Below are positions 30,763 through 44,608 of a DNA stretch of 64,000 nucleotides, in pieces. The notes beneath the pieces were generated by a model. That model searched no databases and had not been told where the DNA came from. It worked only from the letters and a program-made list of their open reading frames with translations. The position numbers were made by a program, and so were the translations under genes. Numbering within the stretch: the stretch's first letter is position 1; every line of letters begins with the position of its first letter. The DNA is taken from NCBI GenBank assembly GCA_005879315.1, contig VBLC01000044.1:1805-65804 (forward strand). The letters are read 5' to 3'. This DNA comes from Deltaproteobacteria bacterium (GTDB taxonomy: Bacteria > Myxococcota > Myxococcia > Myxococcales > 40CM-4-68-19).

Positions 30763-31242
30763 ATGCTCGCACTCCTCCTTGCTGCCACGATACAGGGACC
30801 GGCTGACATCGCCTCGTTGACGCTTGCCTCCGATGCAGTCGTCCGCGCCGAGGTGCTCGGCAAGGAAACCCACTGGGGCGCGGGCGGCGGCGAGATCTTC
30901 ACCACCGTCACGCTGCGCCCGCTCGAAATCTGGAAAGGCGAGCCCGCCGCGCAGTTCTCGCTGCTGGTGCCGGGGGGCAGGCAGGGCGAGCTCGACCAGG
31001 TTGTGCAGGGGGCGGCCCTCTTCCGCGAAGGCGAGGAGGTGGTCGTCTTCCTCGAGCGACGCACGCCCGGCGTCTACCAGGTGGCGCGGATGGCGCTGGG
31101 GAAGTTCACGGTCGGCGCAGTCTCCAGGCGCGCCGTGCGCGATCGCAGCGGCCTTTCCTGCGTCGGCTGCGGCGCGGACGAGGCCGACGCTCTCCCGCTG
31201 GACGAGCTGCGCGCCCGCGTCCTGGGGAGTCTGCGAAAGTGA
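30763..31242 (+). CDS. hypothetical exported protein
   Basis: 159 aa with N-terminal MLALLLAATIQGPA. Its stop overlaps the GTG start of the metzincin gene (GTGA). Confidence 0.55.
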   Translation: MLALLLAATIQGPADIASLTLASDAVVRAEVLGKETHWGAGGGEIFTTVTLRPLEIWKGEPAAQFSLLVPGGRQGELDQVVQGAALFREGEEVVVFLERRTPGVYQVARMALGKFTVGAVSRRAVRDRSGLSCVGCGADEADALPLDELRARVLGSLRK

Positions 31243-33278
31243 AGAGGTTCGCGGCGCTCGCGCTGCTCTTGCCGTGCGCCGCGCTGGCCTGGCAGGGGCA
31301 TCGAGCCGCCGACGGGCAGTTCTTGCGCTGGTCCTTTCCCGACAAGCAGCCGATGGTCGTGCGGCTGGTCGCGCCGCCGCCCTCGCTGCGCCTCAAGGCC
31401 GGCTCGGATCTGCACGCCGCGCTCACCTACGCGGCCGAGGCATGGCAGGCAGTCGAGACCGCGCATGCGCCGGTGCGCGTGCTCGAGCAGGTTGCTCCGC
31501 GCCAGCCGCAGCGAGGCGAAGTGCTGGTGAGCTTCGAGACGGCAGCGGTCTTCCCGCCGGGCCGCGACGCCGCCGGCTTCACCGAGCTCTCCCTCGAAGG
31601 TCACGACATCACCGCCGCGCGCGTGCACCTCAACGCCGCCGACTTCGACTGGTCCACCGACGGGAGCCAGAGCGCGCTCGACGTCCAGACGGTCGCCGCC
31701 GAGCACCTGGGCCACGCGCTCGGCCTCGCCCATCCCTGCGGCGACCTCGACACTGACCTGCCTTCCTGCGCGACGCTGCCGGCCGCGCTGCTGCGAGACT
31801 TGCAGCGCGACGTCATGTTCGCCTCTCTCGCGCCCGGGCCGCGCAGGACGCTGGCGCAGGACGATCGCGACGGCCTGACCGCGCTCCTGCCCGCCGCTGC
31901 GCCTGAGATCGCTCCCGAGCTGCTCGCTCTCTTGCCCCGCTGCCTCGAGTCAGCGACACCGCCGCAGCTCACGCTGCGCGTCGGGCGGACACCGAAGACG
32001 CTGGTGCGGCTCGAGCTCTACAAGTCCGGAATCCTCGTCCAGTCGCAGCCGCTGCAGCGCAACGCCAAGGGCGAGCTCTCCGTCCAGTTCGGGGCTGACC
32101 TCCCCGCGCCGCCAGCGAGGCTCGATGCGCTCCTGGTGGCAGACTCGGAGAAGGCCGGCGCGCTCCTCGGGGCGCTCGAGCTGAGCCTGTCGTGCAAGGC
32201 AGGCGGCTGCGCCAGCGGCGGCGCCTCTCTGCTCGCGCTCGTGCCGCTCCTGCTCTTCGCGCTGCGGCGCAAGCGGACGCTGCTTCTCGCCTTGCTCTTC
32301 GCCGAGCCGGCTCTCGCCTACAAGCGGACCCTCAATTCGGGCGGCCTTTGCATCTGGTGGGACAGCCGCGGACACAGCTTCATGATCGACGCGCGCGGCA
32401 CCCCGGACGTCGTCGGCGACGCGGCCTTCACCGCAATCCGCAGCAGCTTCCAGACCTGGTCGACCACGACTTGCTCGGACCTCTCCTTTCCCGACCAGGG
32501 CCTCTCGATGGATCCGCGCGACCGCGTGGTCGGGTACTTTCCGCGCGTCTGCTCCGGCTGCGGGTGCATCACTCCCGTCAACCGCAACCTCGTCCTCTTC
32601 CGCACCGCGAACTGCCGCCAGCAGGGTGTCGTGCCCTCCGGCGATCCGTGCCTGAGCAAAGGCGGCTGCGGCAACACGTACGACTGCTGGGACCGCGGCG
32701 ACGGCGTCCTCGCCACCACGACGACCACCTCGAACAGCTTCACCGGCCAGATCTACGACAGCGACATCGAGATCAACGACTCGCCGGCGGCCGACGGCAG
32801 CAAGCTCGTCTTCACCGCTCTCGATGGGCCGCCCTGCACCGGGCCCAACCAGACCGGCTGCATCTATTACGACGTGCAGAACACCATCACCCACGAGGCC
32901 GGGCATTCGCTCGGGCTCGACCACAGCCTCGATCCGACCGCGACCATGTACGCCAGCGCGCCGCAGGGCGAGATCAGCAAGCGCACGCTGCACGCCGACG
33001 ACATCCAGGCCATCTGCGACATCTATCCGCGCAGCCTCGACGGCGGCCTGTCGCGCACCGTGACTTGCCTGGGCGATCCGATCACGCTCACCTCAACCGC
33101 CGGATCGAGCGGCGGCTGCGGCTGCTCGCAGGCTCAGGCGGGATCGGGCGCGGCGCTCGCGGCGCTGCTCTTCCTGCTCCAGAGGAAGCGCCGCTCGAAA
33201 AGAAGGCCCCAGCTGGCGATGATCCCGAGCAGCGCTGCCGCCAGCGCGAGCTTGCGGCCGAACGGCAACGTCTCCTGA
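31239..33278 (+). CDS. tandem matrixin-like metzincin; one 679-codon ORF containing two protease-like modules, each ending in a MYXO-CTERM-like tag
   Basis: Module 1 has VAAEHLGHALGLAHP (31701-31733, HE swapped to EH). Module 2 has the canonical HEAGHSLGLDH (32892-32924) plus an ATMYA Met-turn. Tags are GGCASGGASLLALVPLLLFALRRKR (32190-32276) and GGCGCSQAQAGSGAALAALLFLLQRKRR (33102-33206). Confidence 0.7.
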   Translation: MKRFAALALLLPCAALAWQGHRAADGQFLRWSFPDKQPMVVRLVAPPPSLRLKAGSDLHAALTYAAEAWQAVETAHAPVRVLEQVAPRQPQRGEVLVSFETAAVFPPGRDAAGFTELSLEGHDITAARVHLNAADFDWSTDGSQSALDVQTVAAEHLGHALGLAHPCGDLDTDLPSCATLPAALLRDLQRDVMFASLAPGPRRTLAQDDRDGLTALLPAAAPEIAPELLALLPRCLESATPPQLTLRVGRTPKTLVRLELYKSGILVQSQPLQRNAKGELSVQFGADLPAPPARLDALLVADSEKAGALLGALELSLSCKAGGCASGGASLLALVPLLLFALRRKRTLLLALLFAEPALAYKRTLNSGGLCIWWDSRGHSFMIDARGTPDVVGDAAFTAIRSSFQTWSTTTCSDLSFPDQGLSMDPRDRVVGYFPRVCSGCGCITPVNRNLVLFRTANCRQQGVVPSGDPCLSKGGCGNTYDCWDRGDGVLATTTTTSNSFTGQIYDSDIEINDSPAADGSKLVFTALDGPPCTGPNQTGCIYYDVQNTITHEAGHSLGLDHSLDPTATMYASAPQGEISKRTLHADDIQAICDIYPRSLDGGLSRTVTCLGDPITLTSTAGSSGGCGCSQAQAGSGAALAALLFLLQRKRRSKRRPQLAMIPSSAAASASLRPNGNVS

Positions 33279-34213
33279 AACCAGAGAAGCGCGGTCGTGC
33301 CGGCGACGGCGAGCGCGAGCGTCGCCGCCAGCCAGCCAACCTCGCGCCGCGAGAGCTGGACCGCGTGCTTCTCTTGCTGCGCGCGCGTGATCTCTGGCGT
33401 CGGCGGATGGCCCCACTCCGGCCCCTTCAAGAAGACGCGCACCTTGTCGAAGCCTTTGAGCTGCACGCTGCGCCTGCGCATGTCGAAGAAGTGATGCATC
33501 TGTGCCCAGATCGGGTCGAAGCTCTTGAGCGGCTTGACCAGCCCGTAGACGGCCTCTTCCTTCTCCTCTTCGAAGGTGCCGAAGAGGCGGTCCCAGATGC
33601 AGAGGGTGGCAGCGTAGTTCTTGTCGAGATAGCGCGGATTGATCCCGTGATGCACCCGGTGCTGCGAGGGCGTGTTGAAGAGCCTTTCGAAAATTCCCAG
33701 CTTCCCCACCAGCTCGGTATGGATCCAGAATTGATAGAGGGTCGACGCCGATTCGATGATGAGAAACGTGGCGGGCGGCACGCCGATCAGGGCGAGCGGC
33801 AGGTGCAGCGGCCAGAGGGTCCACACCGAGAGCACCGCCTGCCGCAGCGCAACCGCCAGGTTGTAGTCCTCGCTCTGGTGGTGGACGATGTGCACCGCCC
33901 AGAGCGCGTTGACCTCGTGCGAGAGCCGATGCCAGAAGTAGTAGGCGAGGTCGACGGCGAAGAAGGCGATGAGCCAGGGCCAGACCGAGCCGGGCCTGAA
34001 TTCGATCCATCGATGTCTGTAGAGCCAGGTGTATCCGGCGGTGAGGAAGCCGACCTCGAAGACGAGGAAGATCTGCTGCGTCATGCCGCAGGAGAGATCG
34101 GCCACCGCATCGGCAAAGCGATAGAGCTTGAGCCCGCGGCGCCGGGCGAGCCAGAGCTCGACGCCCATCAGCAAGAAGAAGAAGGGAATGGCCAGCGCGA
34201 TCGGATTCGGCAT
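33134..34213 (-). CDS. fatty acid hydroxylase / sterol desaturase superfamily membrane protein
   Basis: His boxes HRLSHE, HIVHHQSEDYN and HRVHHG. Start at ATG 34213 (MPNPIALAIPFFF); the upstream extension in the track is rejected. Confidence 0.85.
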   Translation of the reverse strand: MPNPIALAIPFFFLLMGVELWLARRRGLKLYRFADAVADLSCGMTQQIFLVFEVGFLTAGYTWLYRHRWIEFRPGSVWPWLIAFFAVDLAYYFWHRLSHEVNALWAVHIVHHQSEDYNLAVALRQAVLSVWTLWPLHLPLALIGVPPATFLIIESASTLYQFWIHTELVGKLGIFERLFNTPSQHRVHHGINPRYLDKNYAATLCIWDRLFGTFEEEKEEAVYGLVKPLKSFDPIWAQMHHFFDMRRRSVQLKGFDKVRVFLKGPEWGHPPTPEITRAQQEKHAVQLSRREVGWLAATLALAVAGTTALLWFQETLPFGRKLALAAALLGIIASWGLLFERRFLWSRKSSAASAAPDPA

Positions 34214-34671
34214 TACTCCTCGGACTCGAGATCCTCTTCGTCGTCGGGCTCGGTCAGGGGCGAAGGAGCCATCTTCTCCGGCCGCTCCACTTTCTTCGCT
34301 GCCAGCCGGCGATCGTCCTCGCGGGCGCTGAGAGCCACCTGGCCTTGCCCGTCCAGCTCGAAAGTCACCAGTATCCGCGGTTCGCCGGCCTTGGCGGGAC
34401 TGATGCCCTCGACCATCCACCATGCGTCGCTGTGCAGCTTGTCGGCCGTGTGGCCCGCGCCGCGCAGCACGTGGATGAGGATGTGCTTCTCGCCGTCCTT
34501 CGCGGTGGTGAAGCTCTCGGTTGCGCTGGTCGGGATCTCGCTCCCTTGCGAGAAGAGCTGCGCCACCGAACCGCCGGGCTGCTCCACCGAGACCGGCTCG
34601 CCCAGCGAAGGAGGCCGCGTCTCTTTCTTGCAGGCAGCGAGAGCGAGGACGAGCAGCAGCGCCCGCTTCAC
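34213..34671 (-). CDS. lipoprotein consisting of an Hsp70 (DnaK) substrate-binding beta-domain only
   Basis: Tail of track ORF 34213..38976 from GTG 34671 (GTGA overlap with the aminotransferase stop). Lipobox VKRALLLVLALAAC. ILIHVLRGAG...GISPAKAGEPRILVTFELDGQGQVALSARE aligns with the window's own Dna[11 protein letters not shown]...[30 protein letters not shown]. Confidence 0.65.
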   Translation of the reverse strand: MKRALLLVLALAACKKETRPPSLGEPVSVEQPGGSVAQLFSQGSEIPTSATESFTTAKDGEKHILIHVLRGAGHTADKLHSDAWWMVEGISPAKAGEPRILVTFELDGQGQVALSAREDDRRLAAKKVERPEKMAPSPLTEPDDEEDLESEE

Positions 34672-36011
34672 CGCACCGCCTCCGCCAAGGCATCGGCGAG
34701 GATGCGGATGGCGTCGTCCACCTGTCCCCGCGAGACCGTCAAAGGCGGCGCGATGCGCAGCGCATTTGCGTAGAGGCCGCCCTTGCCGATGAGCAGCCCG
34801 CGCTTGCGCGAGGCTTCCATCAGCCGCGCCGTGGCGGGGCCGTCGGGCTCCTTGGTGCCGCGATCCTTGACCAGCTCGATGGCCTGCATGAGACCCATCC
34901 CGCGCACTTCCCCGATGGCAGGGAAGCTTTGTCGAAGGTCCTCGAGCCCTTCCCGCAGCGCCTTGCCCATCATCTGCGCATTGAAGAGCAGCTTTTCCTC
35001 CTCGATGACCTGGATGGTGGCCTTGGCCGCCGCCATGCTCGGCGGTCCCCCGCCGAAAGTGGAGATGCTGTTGTAGGTCGCCTTGTCGGCCAGTTTCGCC
35101 CTCGCCATGGTGAGGCCGATGGGCTGGCCGTTCGCCATGCCTTTGGCGCTGGTGAGGATGTCGGGCTCGACACCGAAATGCTCGATGCCCCACCACTTCT
35201 CGCCGGTGCGGCCCCAGGCCGTCTGCACTTCGTCGACGATGATCTGGCCGCCGGCGGCGCGCACGATGGGCGCGACGATCTGGAAGTACTCCTTGGGCGG
35301 AACGATGAATCCGCCCACGCCCATGATCGGCTCTGCGATGAAACCCGCGACCTCGCCGGTGGTGGTGGTCTCGATCAGGTTCTTGACGTCCTTGGCGCAG
35401 GCGAGCCCGCAGTCGGGATAGGTGAGGCCGAAATCGCAGCGGTAGCAGTAGGGCGCGTGAGCGTGCTTGATGCCGGGGATTTCGCTCTGCAGCGGGCGGT
35501 AGTTCTTGTTGCCCATCATGTTGACCGCGAGCGCGCCCCGGCCGCCGTAGCTGTGGCGCAGGGCGATGAGGTCGAGGCGGCCGCTGGCGACTTTGGCCAG
35601 CTGTACCGCGGTCTCGTTGGCCTCGGTGCCCGAGTTGGTGAAGAAGACCTTGGCGGGCTCCTTCATCGGCCGCAATTGGACGAGCTTCTCGGCCAGCTCG
35701 ATCTGCGGGACGGTGGGGTAGAGCGTCGAGACGTGCACCAGCTTCTTCTGCTGCTCGATGACCGCCTCGGTCACTCGCGGATGGCAATGGCCCACCGAGA
35801 CGGTGAGGATGCCGGCGAAGAAGTCGAGATACTCCTTGCCGTCGACGTCGCGGAGCGTGAGTCCCTTGCCGGACTCGAGGACGAGCGGCTCCTGGTAGTA
35901 GGTGCCGACGTTGGGAAAGAGCAGTTCCTTCTGCTTGCGGCGGAGGGTGGCGCTGCGCGAGTCGTCCATCGGCCGGAAGATAGCAGAAAGCGGGGCACGG
36001 CCGAGAGCCAT
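34668..36011 (-). CDS. class III (omega-type) aminotransferase, likely beta-alanine/aminobutyrate-type
   Basis: 447 aa. FTNSGTEANE, DEVQTAWGRTG and LTSAKGMANG (PLP Lys). Sits in a pyrimidine catabolic context. Confidence 0.9.
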   Translation of the reverse strand: MALGRAPLSAIFRPMDDSRSATLRRKQKELLFPNVGTYYQEPLVLESGKGLTLRDVDGKEYLDFFAGILTVSVGHCHPRVTEAVIEQQKKLVHVSTLYPTVPQIELAEKLVQLRPMKEPAKVFFTNSGTEANETAVQLAKVASGRLDLIALRHSYGGRGALAVNMMGNKNYRPLQSEIPGIKHAHAPYCYRCDFGLTYPDCGLACAKDVKNLIETTTTGEVAGFIAEPIMGVGGFIVPPKEYFQIVAPIVRAAGGQIIVDEVQTAWGRTGEKWWGIEHFGVEPDILTSAKGMANGQPIGLTMARAKLADKATYNSISTFGGGPPSMAAAKATIQVIEEEKLLFNAQMMGKALREGLEDLRQSFPAIGEVRGMGLMQAIELVKDRGTKEPDGPATARLMEASRKRGLLIGKGGLYANALRIAPPLTVSRGQVDDAIRILADALAEAVR

Positions 36012-36038
36012 GCCCCGCTGGAATTGATGCGCCGCTCT

Positions 36039-36590
36039 TTAGAAGTAGTAGCTGGCGAAGAGGCCGGAGGTGCTGGTGGACAGCTGCGTGGTCGTCGAGG
36101 AGCCCGTCGGCCCGCCGATGTTCCCGATGGTGAAGCCGAGAGCGAGCACGCCGCCGACCGAGAAGCGATCGGTGAACAAGTACTCGACGCCAACCCCTCC
36201 CGCGAAGGTGAGCGCCTCGGCCCCGTCGGTCGCACTGACCTTGTAGCGGGTGAGCACGACCGAGGGCTGCAGGAAGAGCGCGATGCGATCGCGCTTGTGC
36301 TGGTACATGCGCGCGCCCAGGCCGAGTGTCAGGGTGGCGGGGCCGTAGCCGGACGAAAGAATGGCGTCGAAGCCGACCTCGGCGCGCACCGCCACTCCAT
36401 CGTTGATGAAGTAGCTTGCTCCGATGGTGCTGGCGAAAGCCGGCGAGCCGCCGACGCTCACCGTCGATCCTGGTAGCTCGGGCGCGGGACCCAGGCCGAA
36501 GGACAGACCCATCATTCCCTTGGAGTCGAAGTCCATCCTCCCAGGCGAGGTGACGGCGGCGGCTGCGACGAGGATTGCGAGCAGGGGCAT
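36039..36590 (-). CDS. small outer-membrane beta-barrel protein
   Basis: Signal MPLLAILVAAAAV, alternating beta-strand pattern and a C-terminal aromatic end SGLFASYYF. Confidence 0.7.
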   Translation of the reverse strand: MPLLAILVAAAAVTSPGRMDFDSKGMMGLSFGLGPAPELPGSTVSVGGSPAFASTIGASYFINDGVAVRAEVGFDAILSSGYGPATLTLGLGARMYQHKRDRIALFLQPSVVLTRYKVSATDGAEALTFAGGVGVEYLFTDRFSVGGVLALGFTIGNIGGPTGSSTTTQLSTSTSGLFASYYF

Positions 36591-36665
36591 TTTGGAACCT
36601 CCCCCTCCGTCGTAGCCGAGGCGCGCAGATAGGCAATTTTTTGTCGGTCGCGCCTGCGAAAAGCC

Positions 36666-38051
36666 TTACGCGAGGGTCAGGCCCCGCTTGAGAAAGCGGC
36701 CTTCGCCCTTGCGGCCGATGAAGTTGCCGTTCTCCACCACCGGCTTGCCGCGGGAGAGAACGACCGTCGGCGCGCCCACCACCTCGCGGCCCTCGTAAGG
36801 GTTGTAGTCGACCTTCATGTGATGGGTCTTGGCGGAGAGCGTGTGGCGCTTCTCCGGGTCCCAGACGACGACGTCGGCATCGGCGCCAGGCGCGAGCGTT
36901 CCCTTCTTGCCGAAGAGGCCGAAGATCCTGGCCGGCGCTGCCGAGTTGAGCTGCACCCAGCGGTTCAGGCTGATCTTGCCGCTGCGCACGCCTTCGAAGG
37001 TGAGAGAGAGCCGCGTCTCGACCCCGGGCGCGCCGTTGGGGATCTTGCTGAAGTCGGCTTTTCCGAGCTCCTTCTCCTTCATGCAGAAGGGGCAGTGGTC
37101 TGTGGAGACGCACTGCAAGTCGTCGAGCTGCAGCCCGCGCCAGAGGTGCTGCTCGTTGCCGGGCATGCGCAGCGGCGGGCTCATCACGTACTTGCTGCCG
37201 GCGAAGCCCGGCTCCTCGTAGTTGCGATGGTCGAGGAAGAGATACTGCGGGCAGGTCTCGGCGTAGGCCCTGACGCCCCGATCCCGGGCCATGCGCACCT
37301 GCTCGAGCGCCTCCGCGGCAGAGAGGTGGACGATGTAGAGCGGCACCTTGGCCACTTCGGCGAGAGCCAGGACCCGATGGCTCGCCTCGGCCTCGAGTCG
37401 CGCCGGCCGCGTCAGCGCGTGCCAGACCGGCGCGGTCTCGCCGCGCGCCTTCGCTTCCTCGATGAGGACGTCGATGACCGGCCCGTTCTCGGCGTGCATG
37501 CAGATGAGGCCGCCGTTCTCGCCGGTCTTGCGCAGGGCGCGGAAGATGCTCGCGTCGTCGACGTAGAAGACGCCGGGGTAGGCGGTGAAGAGCTTGAAGC
37601 TGGTGACGCCTTCGCGCTTGACGAGGTCGTCCATGTCGCTGAGGGCCTGCTTGTTCACCTCGCGGACGATCATGTGGAAGCCGTAGTCGATGACCGCCTT
37701 GCCTTCGGCCTTGCCGTGCCAGTCGGCGAGGCCGGCCTTGAGCGAACCGCCCTGCGGCTGGATGGCGAAGTCGACGATGGTGGTGGTCCCGCCGAACGCG
37801 GCCGCCTTGGTTCCCGACTCGAAGTCGTCGGCGCTGGTCGTGCCGCCGAAGGGCATGTCGAGGTGCGTGTGCACGTCGATGCCGCCGGGGATGACGTACT
37901 TGCCGCGCGCATCGATGCGCTTGTCGAGCTTGCCGTAGACCTTGGCGAGGTCCTTGCCGACGGCGCCGATCTTCTCGTCCTCGATGACCAGATCGGCGAC
38001 GAAGGTGTCGGTCGGCGTGACCAGCGTCCCGTTCTCGATGATGGTGCGCAT
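36666..38051 (-). CDS. dihydropyrimidinase / D-hydantoinase
   Basis: 461 aa. PGGIDVHTHLDMPFGGT and the cyclic amidohydrolase pattern throughout. Confidence 0.9.
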   Translation of the reverse strand: MRTIIENGTLVTPTDTFVADLVIEDEKIGAVGKDLAKVYGKLDKRIDARGKYVIPGGIDVHTHLDMPFGGTTSADDFESGTKAAAFGGTTTIVDFAIQPQGGSLKAGLADWHGKAEGKAVIDYGFHMIVREVNKQALSDMDDLVKREGVTSFKLFTAYPGVFYVDDASIFRALRKTGENGGLICMHAENGPVIDVLIEEAKARGETAPVWHALTRPARLEAEASHRVLALAEVAKVPLYIVHLSAAEALEQVRMARDRGVRAYAETCPQYLFLDHRNYEEPGFAGSKYVMSPPLRMPGNEQHLWRGLQLDDLQCVSTDHCPFCMKEKELGKADFSKIPNGAPGVETRLSLTFEGVRSGKISLNRWVQLNSAAPARIFGLFGKKGTLAPGADADVVVWDPEKRHTLSAKTHHMKVDYNPYEGREVVGAPTVVLSRGKPVVENGNFIGRKGEGRFLKRGLTLA

Positions 38052-38060
38052 GCGCTGCTC

Positions 38061-38927
38061 CTAGGGAAGCTGCTTGACCATGTTCTCGTACGTCTCCGGC
38101 CGGCGGTCGCGGTAGAACTGCCAGACGCGGCGGACCTCCTCGATCAGATCGAGGTTGAGGTCGGCGACGATCAGCTCGTCGCGGTCCTCGCTGCCCTCGG
38201 CGAGAACATTGCCGCGCGGATCGACGAAGTAGGAATGGCCATAGAACTTGCCGATGTTCCAGGGCGCCTCGGTGCCGACGCGGTTGATGCAGCCCATGAA
38301 ATATCCGTTGGCCACGGCATGGGCGGGCTGCTCCAGCTTCCAGAGATATTGCGAAAGCCCCGCGACCGTCGCGCTGGGATTGAAGACGATCTCCGCCCCC
38401 GAAAGGCCCAGCAGCCGCGCCCCCTCGGGGAAGTGGCGGTCGTAGCAGATGTACACGCCGATGGTCGCGTGCTTCGTCTTGAAGACCGGATATCCGAGAT
38501 TGCCGGGCTTGAAGTAGTACTTCTCCCAGAACCCCGCCGTCTGCGGAATGTGGTTCTTGCGGTACTTGCCGAGATAAGTTCCATCGGCGTCGATGACGGC
38601 GGCGGTGTTGTAGTAGACGCCGGCCATCTCCCGTTCGTAGACCGGCACCACCAGCGCCATCTGATGCTGCCGCGCGAACTTCTGCAGCCGCTCGACGGTC
38701 GGTCCGGGCACCGGCTCGGCAGCGTCGTACCAGTCGGGTGTCTGCGCCGGACAGAAATAGGGGCCGTTGAAGATCTCCTGCAAGCAGAGGATCTGCACCC
38801 CCCGGCGCGCCGCCTCCTCGAGCAAGGGGATGTGCTTCTCGAACATCGCCTCCTGGATCTCCTTCACGGAGCCGTCGGACCTGGCGTTGGCGCACTGGAT
38901 GAGGCCGGAGCGGACGGTGCGGGGCAT
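38061..38927 (-). CDS. beta-ureidopropionase-like carbon-nitrogen hydrolase (nitrilase superfamily)
   Basis: 288 aa. LCLQEIF (catalytic Glu region), YRKNHIP (Lys) and GVYICYDRHFPE (Cys). Confidence 0.85.
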   Translation of the reverse strand: MPRTVRSGLIQCANARSDGSVKEIQEAMFEKHIPLLEEAARRGVQILCLQEIFNGPYFCPAQTPDWYDAAEPVPGPTVERLQKFARQHQMALVVPVYEREMAGVYYNTAAVIDADGTYLGKYRKNHIPQTAGFWEKYYFKPGNLGYPVFKTKHATIGVYICYDRHFPEGARLLGLSGAEIVFNPSATVAGLSQYLWKLEQPAHAVANGYFMGCINRVGTEAPWNIGKFYGHSYFVDPRGNVLAEGSEDRDELIVADLNLDLIEEVRRVWQFYRDRRPETYENMVKQLP

Positions 38928-39101
38928 GTCGTTCTCCTCCGGGCGGCAAGGTCGCGCGGAAGGAGCTTCGGGTCAACCCATGAAAGCGGACGCTGCTTGC
39001 CTTCGCCGCGCGTTTGCGAGACAGTTTCCCCGAGGCTTGAACCTCGCCGGCCTCCGCACCCGCAGCTCTAGAACGCGCACCTTCGAGATGGGAGGGCCGT
39101 C

Positions 39102-39899
39102 ATGGCCCGCAAGAACACGGCAGCGGCGTTGAAGCCTGAGTCGTCCAATGGCAAGGGACCGCGGACGCCCCCCGACGCGCGCAAGGATCTGCTCGATCGG
39201 GCGGCGCGCAACCTGGCGGGCGCCTGTCAGTTCCGCTCCGATCCGCTCTCCGACGCGAAGGGCTGCAGGGCGGTGGTGGAGGCCATCCGGGTCCATCGGG
39301 CGGAGCTCGCCCGGCGCGGCCTGACGGCAGCGTATGGCGAGGCCGCGCTCCAGCTGGCGCGGGAGATCGAGGACCACCTGCAGGCGCTATCGGCAGCCGC
39401 GGTGACGGCGCGAGGGCGATCGCCGGAGGCTGCCGAGCTGCTCGCCGACGCTGCCGCCACGGCGCAGGCGGTGCGTGAGGCGGCGCTTCGCGTCTCACGC
39501 GGCGCCGACGGCCGGCGGCTGGCGCGCGACTTCGGCGTCGGGGAGCCGTTCAGCGCCCGCCAACAGGGGCACGTCCTGCGCGCGCTGCGGAAGATTCTCG
39601 CCGCCATCGAAGCGCATCCGAATGTGGCCGCCGACATCGGCCTGCTTCCCGAGGACGTGCAGACCATCGAGGGTCTCGCCGCCGAGCTGGAGCGGCTCCC
39701 GGTCGGGCCGCTCTCGGACGAGCAGGCCAAGCTCTTCGAGGCGCACGCCGCGCTGCGCGCTTTCTTCGATCTGGTCTCGGCCAAGGCGTCGCTGGCGCTG
39801 GCGGCGGATCCCGACGAGCGCGCCCGGCTGCTCTCGCTGATTCCGCGCGGCGAGGATCGGCGGCATCTGCGCCGGCAGCCCGAATCTGCGTCGGTGTAG
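39102..39899 (+). CDS. hypothetical Ala/Arg-rich helical protein
   Basis: Track ORF of 265 aa with an ATG start preceded by GGGAGGG. No recognisable motif. Confidence 0.5.
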   Translation: MARKNTAAALKPESSNGKGPRTPPDARKDLLDRAARNLAGACQFRSDPLSDAKGCRAVVEAIRVHRAELARRGLTAAYGEAALQLAREIEDHLQALSAAAVTARGRSPEAAELLADAAATAQAVREAALRVSRGADGRRLARDFGVGEPFSARQQGHVLRALRKILAAIEAHPNVAADIGLLPEDVQTIEGLAAELERLPVGPLSDEQAKLFEAHAALRAFFDLVSAKASLALAADPDERARLLSLIPRGEDRRHLRRQPESASV

Positions 39900-41338: not shown

Positions 41339-43258
<1,920 letters not shown>

Positions 43259-43309
43259 GTCTCTCCTCAAATCTTTTCCGCGGCCTTTGGCTCGCCGCGG
43301 TGCGGCGGT

Positions 43310-43354: not shown

Positions 43355-44608
43355 TTGAGCGAGCTGCTGGCAGGCGAGCGGATCGGCCGGCGGTACGTGC
43401 TGCTGCAGAGGCTCGGCCTCGGCGGCATGGGAGAGGTGTGGCTGGCGGAGCTGGAAGGGGCGGGGGCCTTTCGCCGGCGGGTTGTGATCAAGTGCCTGGC
43501 GCCGGAGCGCCGCGGCGACCAGCGGCTGGCGGCGATGCTGGCCGACGAGGCGCGCGTGGTGGGGCTCGTGCACCATCCCGGCGTGGTCGCGGCCATCGAC
43601 TATCTGGAGACGGAGGAACACGGGCCGATCTTCGTGCTCGAGTTCGTCGATGGCGCCTCGCTGCGCACCGTGCTCAAGCTGGCGCGGCACAAGAAGATGC
43701 TCTTGCCCGAGCGACTGGCGGCGCACGTCGGCGCCGAGGTCGCGCATGCGTTGCACGCCGCGCATATGGCGGTAGGACTCGACGGCCAGCCGCTCCACAT
43801 CGTCCACCGCGACGTCGCGCCGGACAACGTGCTCCTCTCGCGCTCGGGCGCGGTCTACCTCGGCGATTTCGGCGTGGCCCGCGCGGCAGGCAATTCGGAC
43901 ACCACGCTGCCCGGCAGCCCGAAAGGAAAGATGGGCTTCATGGCGCCGGAGCAGGCGGTGGGGCGGCCAGTGGGACCGGCCGCGGACATTTTTTCGCTCG
44001 GGCGCGTCATCGCGGATGCCGCCGACGTGAGCTGCGGACCTTCGCTGCGGGCGGTGATCGAGAAGGCGACCGCGCACGACCCGCGCGCCCGCTACGCGAG
44101 CGCCTCCGAGCTGGCCGCGGCGCTGGTGCAGGCCTGCCCGCCTCCGCCCGATCCCGACGGCGCTCTCGCCCGCTGGCTGCGCGAGGCGGCGCCGGACGCT
44201 TTCGTCTTTCGCCAGACGAGTCCTGGCTCGAGCCCGGCTCCGCTCTTCGCTGCGGTGCCGCCGCCCTCGCGCTGGAAACTGAAAGCCGTGGCGGCGGGAG
44301 CCATCGTCGTCTTCGTCGTCCTGCCGGTCGCGCTCATCCACTCGGCCATGCGCGGGAGCGAGCTCGTCTCGACGGCGGTGGCCGGCATCAGAGCTCCGCA
44401 GGGGACGCTGCGCGTGACCAGCAGGCCGGAGGCGGCCGAGGTCTACGTCGACGGACGCCTGCGGGGGAACACGCCGCTCTTGCTCGAGTTGCCGCCGGGA
44501 AGACACGCCGTTCGGGTCGGCTCGCCGCGGCTCGAGCACTGGCGCGCCGCGGAGGTCAACGTCAAGGACAACGTCGAGCATCGCCTGGAAGTCGATCTGA
44601 GCGAATGA
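43355..44608 (+). CDS. Ser/Thr protein kinase with a TM segment and C-terminal PEGA domain
   Basis: Tail of track ORF 40802..44608. LGLGGMGEVWLA, VVIKCL, HRDVAPDNVL, DFGVA and APE. TM AVAAGAIVVFVVLPVALI. PEGA-like LRVTSRPEAAEVYVDGRLRGNTPL. TTG 43355 is the only start upstream of the Gly loop. Confidence 0.85.
   Translation: MSELLAGERIGRRYVLLQRLGLGGMGEVWLAELEGAGAFRRRVVIKCLAPERRGDQRLAAMLADEARVVGLVHHPGVVAAIDYLETEEHGPIFVLEFVDGASLRTVLKLARHKKMLLPERLAAHVGAEVAHALHAAHMAVGLDGQPLHIVHRDVAPDNVLLSRSGAVYLGDFGVARAAGNSDTTLPGSPKGKMGFMAPEQAVGRPVGPAADIFSLGRVIADAADVSCGPSLRAVIEKATAHDPRARYASASELAAALVQACPPPPDPDGALARWLREAAPDAFVFRQTSPGSSPAPLFAAVPPPSRWKLKAVAAGAIVVFVVLPVALIHSAMRGSELVSTAVAGIRAPQGTLRVTSRPEAAEVYVDGRLRGNTPLLLELPPGRHAVRVGSPRLEHWRAAEVNVKDNVEHRLEVDLSE

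Follow-up and report, generated by a model that had tools for sequence, protein, structure and literature searches.

The window analysed here is a stretch of 64,000 nucleotides (nt) from contig VBLC01000044.1 of a Deltaproteobacteria bacterium assembly (GCA_005879315.1; Myxococcales in the GTDB lineage). On its minus strand lies a gene of 152 codons whose product, called the SBD lipoprotein below, is predicted to consist of a lipoprotein signal peptide with its cysteine at position 14, the beta-sandwich (SBD-beta) of an Hsp70 substrate-binding domain, plus an acidic tail (Table 1). An earlier inspection of this DNA from its letters alone (the sequence-only reading) had described a 152-amino-acid (aa) open reading frame (ORF) with a GTG start overlapping the stop of an aminotransferase gene, and a TAATG junction with a hydroxylase gene downstream. 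Both junctions are there. The ORF runs from 34671 to 34213 on the minus strand, the strand having been left unsaid at the time; its GTG (34671..34669) overlaps the aminotransferase TGA (34670..34668), and the last A of its TAA is the first A of the FA_hydroxylase ATG. We label the resulting GTGA overlap a probable translational coupling of the SBD gene with the aminotransferase gene.

The gene is real. Upstream of the GTG its frame stays open for a total of 1587 codons (34213-38976, minus strand), spanning the aminotransferase and dihydropyrimidinase genes; this long frame is an artefact of GC-rich DNA and could mislead ORF-based gene calling. The true start is nevertheless fixed, because the homologues all begin at the same place with M/V-K/R-R. 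Moreover, the ratio of non-synonymous to synonymous substitution (Ka/Ks) of the SBD gene against 22 orthologues is 0.17-0.47.

Table 1. Positions of the SBD lipoprotein gene, of its parts and of the neighbouring genes within the window
Feature	Position	Strand	Basis
SBD lipoprotein gene, GTG start, TAA stop, 152 codons	34213..34671	minus	ORF list and translation
GTGA overlap of SBD start codon and aminotransferase stop codon	34668..34671	minus	read from sequence
Shine-Dalgarno-like GGAGG, 7 nt upstream of GTG, within the end of the aminotransferase gene	34679..34683	minus	sequence
Predicted signal peptide, residues 1-13: positive n-region KR, hydrophobic LLLVLALAA	34633..34671	minus	translation
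Lipobox Cys14 (+1 of predicted mature lipoprotein), with Lys15 at +2	34630..34632	minus	sequence and relatives
Tether, residues 15-26 (KKETRPPSLGEP), conserved R19, P20, P21, L23, E25	34594..34629	minus	family alignment
Hsp70 SBD-beta sandwich, residues 27-128 (E. coli DnaK 399-500), eight strands	34288..34593	minus	Pfam, NCBIfam, PDB profile, model
Acidic C-terminal tail, residues 129-152, in place of helical lid	34216..34287	minus	model and sequence
Conserved tail motif PSPLTEPDDEED, residues 136-147	34231..34266	minus	alignment
CN_hydrolase (beta-ureidopropionase-like), first gene of the cluster	38061..38927	minus	Pfam PF00795, E=1.9e-66
Dihydropyrimidinase	36666..38051	minus	TIGR02033, 594.9 bits (cut-off 393)
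Putative 8-stranded outer-membrane beta-barrel protein, 183 aa, ends YYF	36039..36590	minus	weak Pfam OMP_b-brl, E=5e-5, below gathering score
Class-III aminotransferase, directly upstream of SBD gene	34668..36011	minus	Pfam PF00202, E=4e-94
FA_hydroxylase-family membrane protein, TAATG junction	33134..34213	minus	Pfam PF04116
DnaK of the window, ATG start at 43258	41339..43270		BLASTP target

Domain identity, fold and export signal

The body of the protein is an Hsp70 SBD-beta. The Pfam HSP70 model matches with 50 bits (gathering score 20.6; E=1.9e-13), only at positions 394-493 of the 599 in the profile. The NCBIfam models of HscA (TIGR01991; 67.3 bits against a cut-off of 708.55) and DnaK (TIGR02350; about 55-56 bits against a cut-off of 822.55) align only at positions of about 382-497. 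The sequence-only reading had aligned the protein residue by residue with the SBD-beta of the DnaK encoded in the window, and BLASTP bears this out with a gapless match of 33/92 identities (36%, E=8e-17). A profile of the family searched against PDB gave E=1.7e-18 with the DnaK SBD and about 2e-18 with the isolated SBDs 1DG4, 1Q5L and 1DKX; residue n of the SBD lipoprotein is DnaK residue n+372. Scanning Pfam at E<=10 returned HSP70 as the sole match and no Skp, SurA, Spy or HdeA family. As judged from these alignments, the homology to Hsp70 SBD-beta is far beyond chance.

A first AlphaFold model, built from 29 close homologues, had a confidence score (pLDDT) of 59.7 and was unreliable over residues 11-46; it was replaced, though, poor as it was, it already matched Hsp70 SBDs only. 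The second model, from a 65-sequence alignment, reached a mean pLDDT of 85.5 (residues 21-130: 93-96); it shows eight strands, and beyond residue 128 there is no helix. The 50 Foldseek matches listed, over alignments of 105-123 columns and all at a probability of 1.00, are without exception Hsp70 chains or substrate-binding domains. The closest of them (7KRT, 4B9Q, 5NRO, AMPylated BiP and Ssb), at 1.3-1.5 Å over 105-108 residues, show the SBD-beta in the ATP-bound, open, domain-docked state. The likeness of the model to an open conformer docked on a nucleotide-binding domain (NBD), in a protein that has none, could be either a real preference or a modelling bias. The significant score of the hidden Markov model and the superposition on the DnaK and BiP SBD-beta are both as the sequence-only reading had expected of the SBD-beta sandwich.

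The other parts of an Hsp70 are missing. The protein is 152 aa long and the DNA upstream of it codes for the aminotransferase in another frame, which leaves no NBD, the ATPase domain of Hsp70. In place of the VLLLD interdomain linker, strand 1 is preceded by the lipobox and KKETRPPSLGEP. The model has no helical lid after residue 128, and the lid latch Arg467 is near-invariantly Ala (118/123). The earlier claim that both NBD and lid are absent thus agrees with the length and with the model. As far as alignments and model can tell, the SBD lipoprotein has an Hsp70 SBD-beta domain and nothing else of Hsp70.

The N-terminus is VKRALLLVLALAAC, a standard lipobox, and MKRALLLVLALAAC combines a positive n-region, a hydrophobic h-region and a lipobox ending in Cys, as lipoprotein signals do. 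The lipobox had been seen before, and its Cys is kept in 122/122 relatives examined. The sequence of the h-region differs among homologues while its hydrophobicity is retained in all, and a varying but hydrophobic core is the usual signature of a functional signal peptide, as this one is likely to be. The mature domain has no further Cys. We infer lipidation at Cys14. At position +2 a Lys is found almost throughout the main clade, in 109/114 relatives scored by the lipobox pattern and in 8/8 that the pattern missed. In Myxococcus xanthus +2 Lys marks 8/12 inner-membrane lipoproteins, and one +2 Lys signal sequence directed mCherry to the inner membrane (PMC3222651). Therefore, by the Myxococcus rule, the protein is predicted to be anchored in the inner membrane and to face the periplasm.

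We take the roles of the DnaK residues (pocket, arch, latch and NBD contacts) to be those of the DnaK literature. In the pocket, I401 is V in 121/123 sequences, F426 is kept in 123/123, V436 has become L, I or V, I438 is I or V, and I472 is V or I. The window protein carries V29, F54, I64, I66 and I100 at these sites, and the hydrophobic pocket is retained. Thr403 is Gln in 123/123. The residues that contact the NBD in DnaK are replaced, Lys414 by Gln, Asn415 by Gly and Asp481 by Gln near-invariantly, and Ile483 by Gln or His. The former NBD-docking loops L2,3 and L6,7 are invariant within the family (QGSEIP, DxQG), unlike DnaK, and the cleft-forming segments SVEQPGGS and FTT are equally invariant. 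Because the chain of an Hsp70 enters SBD-beta at the docking face, which here lies only 12 residues from the lipid anchor, this face is probably held against the membrane or a membrane partner.

The acidic tail, also part of the original description, has a net charge of -9 over residues 131-152. A motif P[LA][TSA][ED]PD[DE] occurs in it in 119/122 relatives, in the form PL(T/S)EPDD(D/E)ED, and persists in members that are 47-55% identical. In the model, residues 131-140 have a pLDDT of 81 and isolated beta-bridges are found at S22 and L139; these are hints at most that the tail may dock into the cleft.

Distribution and genomic context

With the window protein as query we retrieved 279 homologues, and with two divergent members as query 305 (150-184 aa). 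The best 120 of the 279 are 152-164 aa long and 66-99% identical. Most are labelled as coming from Myxococcales or Deltaproteobacteria metagenome-assembled genomes (MAGs). In data holding one genome per species, the gene is carried by at least 22 species, every one of them an uncultured MAG of the Myxococcales or 'Deltaproteobacteria'; the scan depended on two peptide motifs matched exactly, which makes 22 a minimum. When 1.84 billion cluster representatives were searched exhaustively with phmmer, only three matches fell below 1e-30, and the family is therefore narrow. Its sequences are already public under generic names, many of them unnamed. Labels, where given, are 'Hsp70 family protein [Myxococcales bacterium]', 'molecular chaperone DnaK' and 'molecular chaperone HscA'. 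Such labels mislead, since none of these proteins can be an Hsp70 chaperone as usually understood, and the SBD lipoprotein should not be called DnaK, HscA or an Hsp70-type molecular chaperone.

The SBD gene is one of six co-directional genes, from the CN_hydrolase to the FA_hydroxylase gene, separated by 9, 75, 27, -4 and -1 nt. Across 32 informative loci (designated by L numbers) the aminotransferase gene is immediately upstream of the SBD gene in 31, the exception being L029, where dihydropyrimidinase is directly upstream. The 4-nt overlap with Aminotran_3 is found in every gene-called locus (L001, L003-L005, L028 and L033-L036) and persists down to about 47-55% protein identity. Most of the loci come from one uncultured clade, and the context rests mainly on six divergent ones (L028, L029 and L033-L036). 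The FA_hydroxylase gene follows the SBD gene only in the close clade. It is missing downstream in L012, L018, L028, L029 and L033-L036, and the hydroxylase was rejected as a functional partner. Thus the hydroxylase junction of the sequence-only reading is present here but is not conserved, and the conserved coupled partner is the aminotransferase. The genes between dihydropyrimidinase and aminotransferase also vary (OMP-like, for the outer-membrane protein of Table 1, GT2/GtrA or Ser_hydrolase); since they and the hydroxylase vary, the robust association is that with the aminotransferase.

PreT and PreA (dihydropyrimidine dehydrogenase) adjoin the cluster in L033 and L036 (PreA in L036 scores 663 bits against a cut-off of 335), and tblastn of the window found neither. 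The ORFs upstream of the cluster in the window had no Pfam match. A promoter and terminator scan of 32900-39400 gave no minus-strand site, a result at best compatible with one transcript. The conserved partner is the aminotransferase of a reductive pyrimidine-catabolism cluster, a partnership of co-location only. Co-regulation under scavenging or starvation is the simplest reading of the coupling.

Envelope genes are embedded in the pyrimidine cluster. In the window this is the OMP-like gene of 183 aa, which also occurs in L001, L006, L020 and L036; elsewhere it is a GT2/GtrA glycosyltransferase or a Ser_hydrolase gene. Genes for an extracytoplasmic function (ECF) sigma factor and a zf-HC2 anti-sigma factor are transcribed divergently to the cluster in L033 (1185-2062) and L034 (625-1505) and absent from the window; present only in these two loci, they were rejected as conserved neighbours. 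On the plus strand at 31239-33278 the window has a myxosortase-dependent metalloprotease of the MXAN_2677/2678 family (278 bits against a cut-off of 250). The metalloprotease and hydroxylase ORFs (the latter at 33134-34213, minus) converge with a 3′ overlap of 145 nt, which is 133 nt in L001. A Ser/Thr protein kinase domain at about 43400-44608 (plus strand) starts just upstream of dnaK on the opposite strand, an assignment that rests on HRDVAPDN and DFG motifs read from the ORF translation.

Other NBD-less forms of SBD-beta

The sequence-only reading had proposed a survey of SBD-only lipoproteins across the Myxococcota; the architecture extends beyond that phylum. A second family, of lipoproteins labelled 'Hsp70 family protein' that are about 145 aa long and have SBD-beta as their only domain, is found in the cultured Lysobacter, Saccharophagus, Stutzerimonas and Pseudoteredinibacter and in a Cyclobacteriaceae MAG. 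The lipobox Cys is invariant in its seed alignment of seven sequences, a lipobox was scored in 92/120 members and a CxxPC pair in 95/120. The two families are alike in their architecture of lipobox and SBD-beta and are 27-38% identical. However, the second has the CxxPC pair, no acidic tail motif, and a place in integron cassettes rather than in a catabolic operon. In Stutzerimonas the gene (L031:6001-6444) is the third ORF after an integron integrase (L031:3686-4651; TIGR02249, 497 bits against a cut-off of 265). In Saccharophagus (L032:6001-6432) it sits within a run of 19 small ORFs, the spacers between which are repeats of 130-157 nt with a CATAAC-type inverse core at the start and a GTTATG/GTTAGG core at the end. 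We read these repeats as attC-like sites; the second family is carried in chromosomal integron cassettes of Gammaproteobacteria.

A neighbour-joining tree groups the small exported SBD-betas together, both families included, apart from the full-length Hsp70s; the tree is rough, with no support values and with long branches, and its grouping is a hint only. There are at least two SBD-beta lipoprotein families and one membrane-anchored group.

Further NBD-less forms came out of the exhaustive search (P0161, P0233 and P0254; P0130, P0135 and P0141). Some are small SBD-beta proteins in which an N-terminal transmembrane anchor replaces the lipobox, and others are lipobox proteins in which two SBD-beta repeats precede a helical lid. 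Tandem SBD-beta repeats are fused to a Ser/Thr kinase and DnaJ_C with no ATPase domain, and Hsp70-GrpE-kinase fusions and full Hsp70s with a second SBD-beta also occur (fusion and tandem examples are P0133, P0140, P0151, P0175, P0127 and P0136). In these architectures the SBD-beta acts as a mobile module.

Proposed function and alternative explanations

The nearest known system is the SBD-beta of DnaK and other Hsp70s (E. coli DnaK 393-507; 1DKZ, 1DG4, 4B9Q), which shares the eight-stranded sandwich and the pocket at a root-mean-square deviation of 1.3-1.5 Å and is 30-36% identical, without gaps, over about 95 residues. Unlike DnaK, the SBD lipoprotein has a signal peptide and lipobox and has no ATPase domain, VLLLD linker or lid; moreover, Met404 is Pro, Arg467 is Ala, and K414, N415 and D481 are replaced. 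HscA (1U00), which is dedicated to IscU, gives the top NCBIfam score and is a precedent for an Hsp70 SBD with a single client motif. HscA itself, however, is cytoplasmic and full-length, with an ATPase, a lid and a J-protein as partner, and no isc genes are found near the SBD lipoprotein gene. Engineered lid-less fragments (DnaK 393-507, 1DG4; lid-truncated BiP, 7A4V) have the same domain boundaries. These are laboratory constructs, whereas the SBD lipoprotein is natural, conserved and predicted to be exported, and has its own tail motif. Peptide binding survives in lid-less SBD fragments and has faster kinetics there; the fragments are also prone to capture their own tails or linkers. Skp, SurA, Spy and HdeA/B have the same job as is proposed here, that of holding unfolded segments without ATP, but are unrelated in sequence and fold, and are soluble and not lipid-anchored. 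Full-text literature searches for exported or NBD-less proteins made only of an Hsp70 SBD gave no characterised example, in keeping with the earlier remark that no characterised example was known, and two M. xanthus Hsp70 papers treat only NBD-containing proteins.

Our best explanation, which is tentative and to which we give a probability of roughly 0.45, is that the SBD lipoprotein is an ATP-independent, lid-less peptide clamp on the periplasmic face of the inner membrane, where it would bind extended stretches of one or a few envelope proteins or exported ones; this is in line with the holdase-like, envelope-anchored module that the sequence-only reading had suggested. The precursor would be exported by the Sec and signal peptidase II route, cleaved, and acylated on Cys14, and would probably be retained in the inner membrane, facing the periplasm, by its +2 Lys. 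The mature protein would then be a tether of 12 residues, a lid-less SBD-beta sandwich and the conserved acidic tail, with the former ATPase-docking face kept close to the membrane. It cannot run the Hsp70 cycle, because it has no ATPase and its predicted compartment has no ATP; instead it would act as a clamp with fast on and off rates, independent of ATP. The retained pocket (V29, F54, I64, I66 and I100) would bind an extended peptide segment with a hydrophobic centre, and the clients may be one or few envelope or exported proteins. A narrow client range is expected because the invariant cleft loops are specific to the family, its taxonomy is narrow and its operon position is fixed. As the protein would be produced along with the aminotransferase, the conditions of its expression are probably likewise those of scavenging or starvation. 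Support for use outside the cytoplasm comes from the other small NBD-less SBD-betas with lipoboxes, CxxPC pairs (95/120) or N-terminal membrane anchors.

Several points weigh against a peptide clamp of this kind. The arch Met404 is Pro in 123/123 and the equivalent of A429 is variable (A, G, K, S or R). The pocket residues double as the core of the fold, and their conservation is no proof of binding. Affinity may be low because there is no lid, and peptide-bound, closed SBDs fit the model worse (2.4-2.6 Å) than open ones (1.3-1.5 Å). The missing lid, the Pro arch and the open-conformer model point to binding that is weak or altered. As cytoplasmic catabolic enzymes, the conserved neighbours give no clue to a client. 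Lastly, the +2 Lys rule is statistical and comes from one species, and a divergent subclade of the family breaks it with T or S at +2, so that the final membrane may differ there.

The fold may have been kept and cleft binding lost, with the QGSEIP/DxQG face or the acidic tail binding and regulating a partner in the membrane or periplasm; the protein would then be a docking module or an adaptor. Consistent with this, L2,3 and L6,7 at the bottom do not vary and yet are unlike DnaK (K414 to Q, N415 to G, D481 to Q), the tail motif is in 119/122, the arch Met has given way to Pro and the model is in the open conformer. However, SVEQPGGS and FTT in the cleft are no less invariant and the hydrophobic pocket is intact, and no gene for a membrane partner is conserved, the hydroxylase, OMP, GT2/GtrA and M48 neighbours all being variable; we consider such a module unlikely. 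The invariant cleft loops are also what a single ligand would predict, and a domain that had become a periplasmic sensor or receptor of some nutrient or small molecule tied to pyrimidine or beta-alanine catabolism would explain the fixed place behind the aminotransferase; throughout the family the gene is strictly linked to the cluster of CN_hydrolase, dihydropyrimidinase and aminotransferase. To our knowledge no Hsp70 SBD is a natural small-molecule receptor. Moreover, no transporter or signalling gene is consistently adjacent (the ECF sigma and anti-sigma pair is in L033 and L034 only) and the integron cassettes of the second family have no metabolic context, which makes a receptor of this sort improbable.

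The same integron cassettes, a typical home of accessory resistance and defence genes, would suit an exported copy of the DnaK site that serves as a decoy or immunity factor, capturing DnaK-targeting peptides (such as proline-rich antimicrobial ones) before they reach the cytoplasm. Moreover, the structural matches include the DnaK SBD solved with pyrrhocoricin, oncocin and apidaecin. Against this, the window family is chromosomal and fixed in a catabolic operon, its arch and nearby contact residues differ from DnaK, and PADLOC models gave no match at E<=0.01 for the window protein and three proteins of the second family; we regard a decoy as very improbable. There is, finally, the reading that the ORF is what remains, without function, of a truncated hsp70 gene, or has arisen by chance in GC-rich DNA, which does yield very long spurious ORFs, the one of 1587 aa in the SBD frame included. 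However, hundreds of homologues agree in length and start, the Ka/Ks values stay under 0.5, the gene has acquired a signal peptide as well as a conserved tail motif, and a Shine-Dalgarno sequence and a coupled start are present. On this evidence from conservation the reading is effectively refuted.

Beyond the window protein, it is possible, though we would sooner bet against it, that lid-less, ATPase-less SBD-beta modules on the outer face of the cytoplasmic membrane form an unrecognised class of ATP-independent envelope proteins that bind peptides, as chaperones or as receptors. Hsp70 function is taught as inseparable from the ATPase cycle, and the periplasm is described as free of Hsp70 for want of ATP. 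If the peptide clamp proposed here is true, nature uses the Hsp70 binding site alone and outside the cytoplasm, and the SBD lipoprotein would let one ask, in a natural setting, what an SBD free of lid and nucleotide is able to do in vivo. The finding extends to a larger set, hundreds of proteins with misleading labels, some of them mobile integron cassettes. Moreover, the strict coupling to the aminotransferase is a concrete starting point for genetics.

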